The notes beneath the pieces are model-generated. The model was not told the DNA's origin, searched no databases, and saw nothing but the letters and a program-made list of their open reading frames with translations. From Omnitrophica WOR_2 bacterium RIFOXYA2_FULL_38_17 (GTDB lineage Bacteria; Omnitrophota; Gorgyraeia; Zapsychrales; Zapsychraceae): a DNA stretch of 64,000 bases. Positions 59,835 through 64,000 of this stretch are shown here, piece by piece. Location of the stretch: NCBI GenBank assembly GCA_001805965.1, contig MHHG01000057.1, positions 85,975-149,974 of the forward strand, in the 5' to 3' direction. How positions within the stretch are numbered: the stretch's first letter is position 1; each line of letters begins with the position of its first letter. The translations under genes and the position numbers were made by a program.

Positions 59835-61004
59835 ATGTCAGAAAACAAAAGCAAACAAATTATCATTGTCGCAGGTGAAGCTTCAGGAGATATGCATGGC
59901 TCATATCTTATTAACGAGATAAAGAAAATCGATCCTAGTATACGTTTTAGCGGCCTCGGAGGCTCACAAATTCAGGCAAGCGGTGCTGAGATCTATTATG
60001 ACCTGACAAAACTGGCAGTTATAGGCTTTTACGAAGTACTAAAACATTACAAAGAGATCAAGAAAGCTTTTAATTTAATTCTAAAAGTAATTAAGGAATC
60101 AAAACCCGCTGCTGTAATCCTAATTGACTATCCTGGCTTCAACTTAAGATTAGCTGAAGAAATTAAGAAGCTAAAAATCGACACAAAAGTTATTTACTAT
60201 ATAAGCCCTCAGATATGGGCGTGGAAAAAGAACAGGATCAAGGCAATCAAGAAGAACATAGACAAAATGCTTGTTCTTTTCGATTTTGAGGAAAAGATAT
60301 ATCTAAACTCAGGAGTAACAGCTAAATTTGTTGGCCATCCGCTTGTTGATGAAGTCAAATCAACTATTTCAAAAGAGGATTTTCTCGAAAGCCTCGGACT
60401 TTCTTCCTACAAAATGACAATAGGAATTCTCCCCGGTTCAAGGGAAAAAGAAGTTCAGCGACATTTACCCTTAATGCTTGGAGCCGCAAAAATACTTAAA
60501 GACGATTATCCAATGATGCAATTTATCGTTATAAAAGCACCTACAATAAGCGAGTCCTTGATAAAAGAATTCTTACCTGACAATCAGCCCCATATAAAGA
60601 TCATTGGATCAAACACTTATGATGCCATTAATTCATGCGAATCATGCATGGTGGCATCCGGCACAGCCACGCTTGAAACAGCTATTCTTTGCAGACCAAT
60701 GGTCGTGGTTTACAAGACATCCTGGCTTACTTGGATTTTAGCAAAATTGTTTTTAAAAATACCTAACATCGGTTTGGTTAATGTTGTGGCTCAAAAAAGA
60801 ATCGTTCCCGAATGCATTCAGCTTTCAGCGAATCCTAATAGGATTGCCTCTGAAATAAGTGAACTGTTTACAAATGAGATCCGATTAGCAAACATTAAAA
60901 ATGAATTAAAAAAAGTAGCAACTGCCTTGGGAACAACTGGGGCTAGTAGAAATGCCGCTAAAGAAGTGATCAACATGATTTTTCCTGCAGAAGGCAAATC
61001 TTAA
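59835..61004 (+). CDS. lpxB: Lipid-A-disaccharide synthase
   Basis: N-terminus IIIVAGEASGDMHG is typical of GT19 LpxB. 389 aa. Confidence 0.85.
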   Translation: MSENKSKQIIIVAGEASGDMHGSYLINEIKKIDPSIRFSGLGGSQIQASGAEIYYDLTKLAVIGFYEVLKHYKEIKKAFNLILKVIKESKPAAVILIDYPGFNLRLAEEIKKLKIDTKVIYYISPQIWAWKKNRIKAIKKNIDKMLVLFDFEEKIYLNSGVTAKFVGHPLVDEVKSTISKEDFLESLGLSSYKMTIGILPGSREKEVQRHLPLMLGAAKILKDDYPMMQFIVIKAPTISESLIKEFLPDNQPHIKIIGSNTYDAINSCESCMVASGTATLETAILCRPMVVVYKTSWLTWILAKLFLKIPNIGLVNVVAQKRIVPECIQLSANPNRIASEISELFTNEIRLANIKNELKKVATALGTTGASRNAAKEVINMIFPAEGKS

Positions 61005-61010
61005 AAAAGA

Positions 61011-61451
61011 TTATCTCATGCTCCTTAGTCTTCTTTGTATCACAACCTGATTACTTGGAGTATTTTGATTTGGATATGAAACCGCTATTTCTTGAATAGT
61101 GCGGCCCTTTGACACGCCGGTTTCTGCGCGCTCCTTCACAACAACAGGTTCAGGTAATTCGGGAGCTGAACCAAATGCAACACTAGCGTTTGCATTAATA
61201 TCTTCAGCCTTAAATACTGCAGTCCATGCCTCAAACAATTTATAATAATCAGGATGTTCTATTTTCGTAAGCTCCAAAATTTCTTCATTTTCAGATAGCG
61301 CCTTATAGGTTTTTTCAATAACAGCCCTATCTTTTGATTTCACTGCCTCAAAGAACTTATCAACAAGGTCCGGCAATGATTTTGATGCCTCAGCAAATGA
61401 AAGCGGCACACATAAAAGAGCTATTAGACAAATAATTAAATATTTTTTCAT
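61011..61451 (-). CDS. Hypothetical secreted protein
   Basis: Cleavable signal peptide (MKKYLIICLIALLCVPLSFA). No recognisable motifs. Confidence 0.4.
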   Translation of the reverse strand: MKKYLIICLIALLCVPLSFAEASKSLPDLVDKFFEAVKSKDRAVIEKTYKALSENEEILELTKIEHPDYYKLFEAWTAVFKAEDINANASVAFGSAPELPEPVVVKERAETGVSKGRTIQEIAVSYPNQNTPSNQVVIQRRLRSMR

Positions 61452-61517
61452 CAGGATTTCCTCGATCTTTTTTATTTTATTCTAAATCTAAATAAACAAC
61501 CCGTCAATATAAGCATA

Positions 61518-62039
61518 TTATGAACAATCTTCTGGGCAATTACAGCTGTCTTCAAACTGATTGCAAATACCGTTTCCGCAAGGGATACAAATAGGCACGC
61601 TGTAAAGCGTATGAGCTCCGATCATATCACAAGTACCATCAATAAAACGCTCTCCGCATCTTTTGACCAGACCATAACAACATTCAACTTTTTGACCAGC
61701 GTATGAAATGTTCCCGCATCCAAATGGCTCATTTATCAATTTATGATAACAAACATCCTCGCCGCTACAGCCTTTGAGTATCTGACAGCTATCCAGCGGA
61801 CAATTCTCAGCATCAATTTCGGCACATTCTTTTGGATAACAAACTTTCTCACAATCATCTAAAGAAAGACCCCCGACACATTCCAATCTGCAAACTGTCT
61901 GAGGACATTCATTGGTTTTACTATAAACACCCTCACAAAACTGTGCAGTACTCTCTTGAGCATATACGATACCAGATAAAGACAAATAAACAAAAAACAC
62001 TAAAAACCAACAAATAAAATTCTTTTTATTAATTTCCAT
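61518..62039 (-). CDS. Hypothetical secreted cysteine-rich protein
   Basis: Signal peptide, then a mature region of about 145 aa with roughly 30 cysteines in C-x-x-C / C-x-C spacing. No known family recognised. Confidence 0.45.
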   Translation of the reverse strand: MEINKKNFICWFLVFFVYLSLSGIVYAQESTAQFCEGVYSKTNECPQTVCRLECVGGLSLDDCEKVCYPKECAEIDAENCPLDSCQILKGCSGEDVCYHKLINEPFGCGNISYAGQKVECCYGLVKRCGERFIDGTCDMIGAHTLYSVPICIPCGNGICNQFEDSCNCPEDCS

Positions 62040-62822
62040 TTAAATTCCTTCCAGATTAATTTGTTGAACCCATCCTTGCTTATCGTCTGAACGTCTTATT
62101 TTAACCCAACCCCCTTCAAATTTCATCATTTTCACACGATTTCCTTCATTTAATTTAAAGTAAACCGTTGCATCCTCTCTAGGCTCAAATCTGGCATCAG
62201 AATCATCTAGAATAACTGCTGTTCCGACCTGATTCTGCACTTTATACTTGAACCCTCCCATATAAATAACTGCCAGAATACTAAGCACTACCAAAATAAT
62301 TTTACCTATCATCAAAGTGATCTTCAGGAACAAGAACAATAAATAAAGCCCAATCGCTATGAACCCAATTGTAACGCCTATAGTCACCAGCTCTTGATCT
62401 GAATGAAAGCTAGTGAATTTATCAATGATCTTAATAACAAAGCCTTTTTTCTCTGACCCAAAATCCTTAACAAGCTTCAGAACATATTTATAATTATAAT
62501 CAACATCGCTGTCTCTTGGCATTAACCTCTTTGCTCTTTCATAATTAAGCACCGCTTTGCCATAATTACCATTCTTAAAATAGCTATTCGCTAAATTATA
62601 ATAGATCTGTCCACTCTCTTTCCCATTCTTAATAATAAGCTCATATTGTTCAATTGCTTTTTTATATTCTTTATCCTTATAAAATCGCTCAGCTGAAACA
62701 AATCGAGCCAAAGCTTCATCATCTGCACTTACAGGGACTGTTAGAAGAAGCAAAATCAAGATAATTAGCCCTCTCAAATAAAGCGTTAAATTTTTATGTT
62801 GTAAAACGCGGGGTGAAAGCAT
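62040..62822 (-). CDS. BatE-like protein (TPR repeats, one TM helix, C-terminal SH3b-like domain)
   Basis: TPR-like repeats (YYNLANSYFKNGNYGKAVLNYERA). A central TM segment. C-terminal KMMKFEGGWVKIRRSDDKQGWV, as in SH3b. Confidence 0.55.
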   Translation of the reverse strand: MLSPRVLQHKNLTLYLRGLIILILLLLTVPVSADDEALARFVSAERFYKDKEYKKAIEQYELIIKNGKESGQIYYNLANSYFKNGNYGKAVLNYERAKRLMPRDSDVDYNYKYVLKLVKDFGSEKKGFVIKIIDKFTSFHSDQELVTIGVTIGFIAIGLYLLFLFLKITLMIGKIILVVLSILAVIYMGGFKYKVQNQVGTAVILDDSDARFEPREDATVYFKLNEGNRVKMMKFEGGWVKIRRSDDKQGWVQQINLEGI

Positions 62823-64000
62823 TTAAAATTTCCTTTCATAGTAATCAATTATCTCTTCAAGATCCTCGAAACTAATATGCATAATATCATGGCTTATCTG
62901 ACCTGAAGCATATCTAACAATATCGCATTCATCAAAGATTCTTTTTAGTTTAGTTTTTATATTATCTGATATATCAATATCTGGCTTATATATTTTACAT
63001 CTGTTAATAACAGATTCAAAGCTAACTGTTCCTACAGGCATATGAAACTTACTTGAAAAATACTTCTGCAATGTCTTGTATAAGCAATCATAGAACCCCT
63101 GCTTATCTTCTAAATCCAGCAAAGTCTTTGCTTTTAAAATTTGTTTTTTTGCATATTTAGGGGCATGCTTTCTTTTTGCATAAACAACGTCAGTCTGCAG
63201 CCTCTCATTTTTCAAAAAATAAACATATCCAAAGATCCACAAAATCAGGAGACATGCAATGATAATATAAAAAGAAGGTTTTTTATAGTCCTTTGTTCCA
63301 ACAGGCTTAATATCGCCAATCTCGGTTTTTATAAACACAATGTCAGAGCCCAGCTCTTCTTCAAAATTCAAATCCCTTTTTGAATCTCCTCCAACAATTC
63401 TTAATCCAACATCTCCTTCGCTCTCCTGTACTTTTATCGGAAAAGGACCTCTTACAATGGTCTTATACTCACCTGATCCTGAATCAAAATAAGAAAAACT
63501 TATAGGAGGAATTTCCTTTAATGTCTTTGACCTGGGAATTAGCACCTGTTCAAGAATCTTATCTCCGTTATTCTGGCTGATCTGGGGCTCATATAATTTT
63601 AGCTCATTGGTCTCTTTAATTTTTGGAAAATTAACAGAATTAATATTCCCCTGGCCAGAAACATTCATCTTCAATGTTATAGGATCCCCCTCTTTAACAT
63701 CCGTCGGACTTACCTGAACATTGAAATCATAAGAGCCAACTCCCCCGGAAAAATCAGCCGGCTTTCCTTCCTGCGGCAATTCCAGGACATTTATTACACC
63801 TTTGCCTGATTCAACAGTCATTGGAACCCTTCTATAAGAATCAAAAATCCCATCAAAGAATTCATCATCAAAAAAACTGCCGAAAGAACGCCTTTTTGTT
63901 TGTTGATTGCTTTTAACGAGCAAATTACAATCTAATTTTACCGGGCCTAATTCCAATGTTCCTGTTCTTGTTGGGTACAAAAAAACAGAGTGCTCAACAA
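62823..64000 (-). CDS. BatD-like protein, partial (N-terminus outside the window)
   Basis: The reading frame stays open to the window edge. A large extracytoplasmic domain is followed by a single TM helix (FYIIIACLLILWIFGYVYFL) and a cytoplasmic tail. Adjacent to the BatE-like gene. Confidence 0.5.
   Translation of the reverse strand, partial: VEHSVFLYPTRTGTLELGPVKLDCNLLVKSNQQTKRRSFGSFFDDEFFDGIFDSYRRVPMTVESGKGVINVLELPQEGKPADFSGGVGSYDFNVQVSPTDVKEGDPITLKMNVSGQGNINSVNFPKIKETNELKLYEPQISQNNGDKILEQVLIPRSKTLKEIPPISFSYFDSGSGEYKTIVRGPFPIKVQESEGDVGLRIVGGDSKRDLNFEEELGSDIVFIKTEIGDIKPVGTKDYKKPSFYIIIACLLILWIFGYVYFLKNERLQTDVVYAKRKHAPKYAKKQILKAKTLLDLEDKQGFYDCLYKTLQKYFSSKFHMPVGTVSFESVINRCKIYKPDIDISDNIKTKLKRIFDECDIVRYASGQISHDIMHISFEDLEEIIDYYERKF

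Follow-up and report, generated by a model that had tools for sequence, protein, structure and literature searches.

CysR, a cysteine-rich family of Omnitrophota with a predicted export signal, encoded next to the Bat operon

The Bat/MoxR-VWA operon is widespread and occurs in Bacteroidota, Spirochaetota, Omnitrophota, and other phyla. Bat proteins have been proposed to form a periplasmic complex and, because B. fragilis mutants were rescued in part by reducing agents, to export reducing equivalents (PMC3557215). In the Borrelia BatA homologue BB0173, the VWA domain with its metal ion-dependent adhesion site (MIDAS) faces the periplasm (PMC5700661). Here, we describe a gene that we name CysR and that directly follows batE in Omnitrophica WOR_2 bacterium RIFOXYA2_FULL_38_17. 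It lies in a stretch of 64,000 nucleotides (assembly GCA_001805965.1, contig MHHG01000057.1, positions 85,975 to 149,974 of the forward strand), which is referred to as the window and in which all positions without a locus name are given. CysR encodes a predicted exported protein with an unusual density of cysteines, belongs to an undescribed family, and is the terminal cistron of a Bat operon in most of its relatives. With a probability of roughly one half, we propose that CysR is a rigid binding or adaptor subunit of the cell envelope that works with Bat, and not a thiol buffer or metal store.

CysR occupies positions 61518..62039 on the minus strand, stop codon included, as supported by the listing of open reading frames (ORFs), homologues, and the ratio of nonsynonymous to synonymous substitution rates (dN/dS). 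The ORF comprises 173 residues, i.e., a signal peptide (residues 1-27) and a mature part of 146 residues. The N-terminus MEINKKNFICWFLVFFVYLSLSGIVYA (61959..62039, minus strand), as read from the sequence, is followed by QE, has VYA at −3 to −1, and is without a lipobox; it is a putative Sec/signal peptidase I signal peptide that may be cleaved after VYA. A hydrophobic N-terminus of variable sequence is present in 39 of 39 aligned homologues. The mature protein (~15.9 kDa) is acidic, with 23 Asp and Glu versus 10 Lys and Arg and an isoelectric point (pI) of ~4.3, and CysR contains two His, six Tyr, and four Phe. An initial annotation, made from the letters of the window and its ORFs, had placed the ORF exactly at these positions with a signal peptide and a mature part of about 145 residues, and its three motifs, CPQTVCRLEC, CEKVCYPKEC, and CIPCGNGICNQFEDSCNCPEDC, are all found in CysR. 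The about 30 cysteines counted there are too many, since CysR has 23 in total and 22 in the mature part, but the emphasis on their density was justified: cysteine makes up 13.3% of CysR versus 1.23% of the pooled 56 other ORFs of at least 150 residues in the window (binomial P ~1.6e-17).

Two halves, each with 11 cysteines, can be told apart. Based on alignments and a motif scan, the N-terminal cysteine-rich half (residues 28-104; 61728..61958, minus strand) contains the motif C-x7-9-C-P-x3-4-C at C35 and C72; a third copy starts at C159, and the prolines of these motifs are almost invariant across the family alignments. Domain mapping and module alignments define a C-terminal module (residues 105-173; 61521..61727, minus strand) with the pattern C..(EGE)..CCxGL..GxC..CxxCGNGxCxxxENxCNCPxDC. 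The most conserved stretch of the protein is the mini-motif CGNGICNQFEDSCNCPEDC within this module (residues 154-172; 61524..61580, minus strand), which corresponds to invariant columns in both alignments that we used, i.e., A1 with 39 homologues and A2 with 127 sequences.

Directly upstream of CysR on the minus strand is a BatE-like gene (62040..62822) encoding TPR, transmembrane, and SH3 segments (Pfam TPR_2, expectation value [E] 3.2e-9; SH3_3, E 1.3e-6), and upstream of it lies a BatD-like gene (62823..64000, minus strand; Pfam BatD, E 2.7e-9) that is cut by the window end. The BatD-like frame has no stop up to base 63998, and the homologue in locus L001 is 600 residues long. The batE stop codon TAA (62040-62042) abuts the CysR ATG (62037-62039), and a Shine-Dalgarno-like GGAAGGA (62046..62052, minus strand; read from the sequence) lies inside the batE 3' end, six nucleotides before this ATG. 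Many relatives have a comparable junction, with the two genes overlapping or 0 to ~20 nucleotides apart. We then considered 44 species-level Omnitrophota loci from GTDB genomes. BatD, BatE, and CysR lie on one strand in 33 of them; in 23 of these 33, the distance between batE and CysR ranges from an overlap to ~160 nucleotides, while it is 400-620 nucleotides in 8 loci, the proteins of which have longer N-terminal linkers, and no start could be placed in the remaining 2. Wherever the upstream sequence reaches far enough (L001 and about 20 other loci), the gene order is MoxR-DUF58-DUF4381-BatA-BatB-BatC-BatD-BatE-CysR, with CysR as the ninth and terminal cistron. Downstream of CysR, all loci that are long enough have a convergent lpxB, a gene for a GFO/IDH/MocA oxidoreductase (absent in a few loci), msbA, and rpsB. 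Because CysR is tightly coupled to batE in three quarters of the genomes, we suggest that it is made with, and probably works with, the Bat complex.

Its conservation and the purifying selection acting on it show that CysR is a real gene. A search with the single sequence returned 59 matching protein clusters with identities of 42-98%, the closest members being 98%, 84%, and 74% identical; a profile search identified at least 185 clusters, of which all named ones are "hypothetical protein" of Candidatus Omnitrophota/Omnitrophica, and an exhaustive phmmer search against 1.84 billion representatives yielded 168 matches. In comparison with the closest genome (L004; 84% protein identity), dN/dS was 0.129 for CysR, 0.133 for batE, and 0.208 for the orphan gene downstream of CysR. 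The conservation in relatives on which the initial annotation had made its proposal depend is thus present (185 clusters, dN/dS 0.13), and the decaying ORF or pseudogene that it had considered is not what we find. We define the Omnitrophota CysR family by a signal peptide, an invariant set of 20 cysteines, and the C-terminus C[ILV]PCGNG[IV]C..E[ND]xCNCPEDC. The window protein has each of these features, and it carries all columns that are invariant in A1 and A2, including those of this C-terminus.

Among the 127 sequences of A2, 18 of the 22 mature cysteines are present without exception, and C35 and C172 are each absent in one sequence. C54 and C63 are jointly absent in 22 of the 127 sequences, and a loss of only one of the two was never observed. 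Of the 127 sequences, 125 have an even number of cysteines (20, 22, or 24), counted from the first conserved cysteine onward. This pattern fits the one expected if every cysteine is paired, with C54-C63 as one predicted disulfide; neither free-thiol chemistry nor tetrahedral thiolate metal sites would readily account for it. Judged from these sequence patterns, CysR is probably cross-linked by 11 disulfides, and roughly one in five relatives would have 10.

The predicted structure is compact. With the 127 sequences and the mature part only, AlphaFold2 returned a model with a predicted local distance difference test score (pLDDT) of 89.5, a predicted template modeling score (pTM) of 0.79, and no segment below a pLDDT of 50; the pLDDT is 83-96 across the N-terminal half. 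The model consists of an N-terminal helix, several β-hairpins, and two short C-terminal helices. An earlier run with 39 sequences and the signal peptide kept had given a pLDDT of 78 and a weak C-terminus, and a knottin fold match was gone with the better model. Using Foldseek, the better model matched nothing at a probability above 0.02 among 350,542 PDB chains. Judged against these chains, the modeled fold of CysR appears to be new. Even cysteine counts, the pairwise loss of C54 and C63, and a confident compact fold with β-hairpins lead us to favor structural disulfides.

Sequence searches similarly placed CysR outside known families. The window protein had no match in Pfam or NCBIfam at E up to 1, and a Pfam/NCBIfam scan of the 127 members together with 17 module-bearing proteins gave no family, returning only a weak match to DUF2180 in 3 of the 127 members and the partner domains described below. 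Profiles of the whole family and of the C-terminal module, searched against PDB sequences at E up to 10, gave only chance matches at E ~1 (Rv1813c and RSC8), and our literature searches across 8 million papers and preprints, using motif strings, Omnitrophota combined with cysteine-rich or aerotolerance, and Bat genes, returned no description of CysR. The family is undescribed. The homology to a characterized family that would have spoken against the initial annotation was not found in Pfam, NCBIfam, or the PDB, and its view of a disulfide-rich exported module beside Bat genes, distinct from any housekeeping fold, is supported; its suggested resemblance to EGF, granulin, or metallothionein folds found no counterpart in either Pfam or the fold search. 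Accordingly, we rejected membership in the EGF-like, granulin, or knottin families, for which there was neither a profile nor a fold match, and metallothionein-like membership, given the lack of a Pfam match, the six Tyr and four Phe, the β-hairpins and helices modeled at a pLDDT of 89.5, and the pairwise loss of cysteines.

Mapping the family profile onto 204 hits for domain boundaries revealed a modular anatomy. Nearly all full-length matches come from Omnitrophota. Three weak, near-full-length matches (29-34% identity) are in Myxococcales, Woesearchaeota, and Deltaproteobacteria genomes, and most other matches outside Omnitrophota begin only at residue ~62 or ~118. Residues ~62-171 are present in Myxococcota and some Proteobacteria, while residues ~105-173 represent a widespread module that is often present in two to six tandem copies. 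Its hosts include Woesearchaeota, Pacearchaeota, and Aenigmatarchaeota among the archaea and Patescibacteria (Falkowbacteria, Magasanikbacteria, Paceibacterota, and Saccharibacteria), Myxococcota, and Phycisphaerae among the bacteria. The consensus of the module contains ten cysteines, C..EGE(12)CCxGL(11)GxC(9)iCxxCG[ND]GiCxxxENxCNCPeDC. A module profile added 186 proteins, all without a Pfam domain or an informative name, and the module itself has no match in Pfam, NCBIfam, or PDB sequences and no description in the searched literature. In module-bearing proteins, the partner domains are SLH, type IX secretion system (T9SS) sorting, Kazal, Kre9_KNH, CARDB, Gmad2, and bacterial TSP3 domains, all of which are extracytoplasmic; the module is also present in small proteins with an N-terminal anchor. 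Because a module-only protein is encoded elsewhere in the Omnitrophota genome of locus L015 (isolate HK-STAS-OMNI-4; L064:10001-10249), the module is used in other Omnitrophota proteins, too.

The last 19-22 residues of CysR also occur on their own, as a 26-residue tandem repeat, PLCGNGVCGDFENPGNCPQDCGSPNE, with four cysteines in lipoprotein-like proteins. This repeat is the minimal stand-alone form of the C-terminal motif of CysR. Three such lipoprotein-like proteins (P0135, P0171, and P0194) have three to seven near-identical tandem copies of PLCGNGVCGDFENPGNCPQDCGSPNE at the C-terminus, and PLCGNGVCGDFENPGNCPQDC is repeated in tandem in the same three proteins. We note that an apparent repeat match to the N-terminal domain in P0185, a protein of 1832 residues, was rejected as a composition artefact, as this protein has zero cysteines. 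The lineages that share the module are Omnitrophota, the Candidate Phyla Radiation (CPR), DPANN, and Myxococcota. For several of them, Omnitrophota included, an ultra-small, episymbiotic, or predatory nature has been described or proposed. The C-terminal module of CysR, extracellular, rich in cysteines, and so far uncurated, would reasonably merit a new Pfam entry and a solved structure.

Based on these data, we propose the following scenario, in which disulfides, location, binding role, and Bat partnership are all predicted. In the genome studied here and in most relatives, CysR would be made as the last cistron with the Bat envelope operon, exported by the Sec pathway, and folded as one compact unit that is probably stapled by 11 disulfides. 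The invariant Asp, Glu, and Asn residues would lie on disulfide-stapled loops. Located in the periplasm or on the cell surface, the protein would serve as a binding or adaptor subunit that is rigid and resists proteases, and the periplasmic parts of the Bat complex are its most likely partners. A periplasmic partner is plausible because the VWA/MIDAS domain of BB0173 faces the periplasm and a periplasmic Bat complex has been proposed. The adhesin or binding-module direction is the one that we favor. With its predicted export, its restriction to one lineage, and its tight coupling to batE, the ninth gene offers a concrete candidate for a Bat partner; if CysR is merely an unrelated neighbor, then the family represents one more domain of unknown function.

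Several observations weigh against a partnership with Bat. In 11 of the 44 loci and in L003, CysR is kept in a slot that lacks the Bat operon (none within 10 kb upstream), and these loci are scattered on a neighbor-joining tree of CysR, which, with 140 residues, is weakly resolved. From this distribution, it seems that Bat was lost or relocated repeatedly while CysR stayed; a single-loss clade of Bat-less loci was not borne out. Because CysR is kept in slots without Bat, adjacency to Bat is not required, and the linkage may be a matter of gene order only. Moreover, homologues outside Omnitrophota have no Bat, VWA, or MoxR genes nearby, and the Bat operon itself has no established mechanism in the searched papers. 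Leptospira bat mutants had no oxidative-stress phenotype (PMC3557215).

Alternatively, CysR would be an independent protein of the envelope or surface, for example an adhesin or a binding module that recognizes glycans or is stabilized by calcium, and it would follow batE because of the gene order of the lineage. We give this reading considerable weight, although less than an adaptor working with Bat. It would account for the retention of CysR beside lpxB in Bat-less slots spread over the tree, and for the module elsewhere being never near Bat and accompanying Ig-like, SLH, and T9SS domains in surface proteins; also, the whole block is syntenic, from the deacetylase gene and the GH149-like gene through Bat and CysR to lpxB, msbA, and rpsB. 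However, the abutting or overlapping stop and start codons of batE and CysR in many genomes suggest co-translation, which goes beyond loose synteny, and the absence of Bat concerns the slot (10 kb upstream), so that Bat may lie elsewhere in these genomes.

The remaining explanations, all raised in some form by the initial annotation, fare worse. A role as a thiol redox buffer of the periplasm or a sacrificial sink for oxidants, in which CysR would provide 'reducing power in the periplasm' for Bat, is improbable, although it could be suggested by the 22 cysteines in 146 residues with a CxxC motif (CIPC), by a DoxX-family gene directly after CysR in L003, and by its place in an operon for which the export of reducing equivalents was proposed (PMC3557215). 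An even number of cysteines with strictly pairwise loss, invariant spacing, and a confident rigid fold argue otherwise, as do the lack of a thioredoxin fold and of a Pfam redox domain and the tandem copies of the module that unrelated phyla carry in extracellular proteins without Bat nearby; furthermore, the redox model for Bat is unsupported in Leptospira (PMC3557215). A periplasmic thiolate metal binder, be it metallothionein-like, a zinc ribbon, or a copper store, is more improbable still. The high cysteine content with CxxC, CxC, and CC motifs, the weak DUF2180 match of 3 of the 127 relatives (best E 4.5e-6), and a four-cysteine mini-repeat that could in principle hold one metal ion would be compatible with this function, but the window protein is exported and without a Pfam match at E up to 1, its two His, six Tyr, and four Phe together with predicted β-hairpins are unlike metallothioneins, and the joint loss of exactly two cysteines fits the loss of a disulfide better than that of half a tetrahedral site. 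The metal- or redox-buffer idea is thus disfavored by the even number of cysteines in 125 of 127 sequences, the paired loss of C54/C63, and the compact fold. We would hardly expect CysR to be a secreted toxin, an antimicrobial peptide, or a knotted protease inhibitor, either: the protein is acidic (pI 4.3) with a dN/dS of 0.13, the gene is single copy and keeps the same chromosomal slot in 44 species, its neighbors include no recognized immunity or export genes (in searches that did not cover the padloc and phrogs libraries), and the knottin match disappeared with the better model. The toxin- or inhibitor-like knot of the initial annotation is therefore unlikely given the acidity, the fixed syntenic slot, and the dN/dS of 0.13.

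We also inspected the surroundings of the locus. The neighbors named in the initial annotation are confirmed, i.e., the BatE-like and BatD-domain genes upstream and, downstream of CysR, an orphan of 146 residues with a signal-like hydrophobic N-terminus (61011-61451, minus strand; from the ORF listing). The orphan has no Pfam match and was found in the nearest relative, L004, only (71% identity, dN/dS 0.208). A sigma-70-like TTGACG-17-TAGAAT precedes it at 61507..61479, and the orphan may be transcribed separately; in a promoter and terminator scan of 60800-64000, the counts were at shuffle level and carry no information. The slot between CysR and the convergent lpxB varies among relatives. 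In L003 (8654-10179), a DoxX-family gene overlaps the CysR stop codon and is accompanied by a gene for a ferredoxin of 62 residues, while L001 (8760-14473) has genes for a sulfatase, an M54 peptidase, the same small ferredoxin as in L003, and a PMT_2 glycosyltransferase.

Upstream of the Bat operon, or of CysR where Bat is missing, is a gene for a protein of ~1090 residues that is itself preceded by a polysaccharide deacetylase gene. This protein has no Pfam match and a weak match to GH149 β-1,3-glucan phosphorylase (109 bits versus a cut-off of 1150). The gene is located at L005:6604-9972 on the plus strand, is also present in L003, L013, L014, L021, L026, L027, L030, L044, and L049, and is found at the 5' ends of L004, L008, L022, L031, L032, L040, L042, and L043. 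In Bat-less slots, CysR abuts or overlaps this GH149-like gene or, in two loci, a PqiA-like gene, and in L044 a PqiA-like gene immediately precedes CysR. In two Bat-less loci (L044:7808-9945 and L030:8109-9761), ExbB-like, ExbD-like, and cyclophilin genes lie between the ~1090-residue gene and CysR. Twelve CysR loci are titled 'uncultured Planctomycetales bacterium' (L011, L024, L025, L028-L030, L032, L033, L037, L038, L040, and L041). These labels are probably wrong, and most of these loci show the Omnitrophota order of Bat, lpxB, msbA, and rpsB.

How does CysR compare with known systems? Relative to the Bat operon (BatA-E), CysR is the terminal cistron of an array in the canonical order and has an export signal, as does BatD. 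It has no homology to Bat proteins and is without a VWA, TPR, SH3, or BatD domain; the 127 members had zero matches to Bat-related models (BatA N-terminal, VWA, TPR, BatD, and SH3), and none of the relatives recovered in our CysR searches came from Bacteroidota or Spirochaetota. In relation to the module of small surface and secreted proteins in CPR, DPANN, and Myxococcota, residues 105-173 of CysR are 33-48% identical and keep all ten module cysteines, and CysR adds one further cysteine in the module (C128) and an N-terminal half with 11 cysteines that is nearly restricted to Omnitrophota. DUF2180 (PF09947), an uncharacterized archaeal cysteine-rich family whose members are not known to have a signal peptide, matches 3 of the 127 members weakly, with E 4.5e-6 at best; 124 of the 127 members do not match it, and neither does the window protein at E up to 0.1. 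The weak matches probably reflect a short CxxCGxGxC stretch. One relative of CysR is named 'DUF2180 family protein' by NCBI because of such weak matches.

A further likeness concerns disintegrins and the Myxococcus cysteine-rich repeat, which also have short, acidic, disulfide-stapled loops starting with CG[ND]G. Pfam and NCBIfam should hold models for both. They differ from CysR in the spacing of cysteines, and there is no fold match; membership in either was rejected, as there was no Pfam/NCBIfam match at E up to 1 and no disintegrin chain in the PDB profile searches. Disintegrins offer an acidic residue to the metal site of integrins, and a ligand of a VWA/MIDAS domain would behave analogously. 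By our own reasoning, rigid acidic loops of CysR with invariant Asp, Glu, and Asn would be the kind of ligand that a MIDAS binds. It is conceivable, if unlikely, that CysR is a 'bacterial disintegrin-like' ligand of Bat that places its acidic loops into the MIDAS of the BatA/BatB VWA domains or docks onto the SH3/TPR domains of BatE. If so, the CPR/DPANN/Myxococcota module would serve generally for docking, as a rigid acidic unit of a new fold, and CysR would give a first handle on what the Bat operon, unexplained since 1999, binds.
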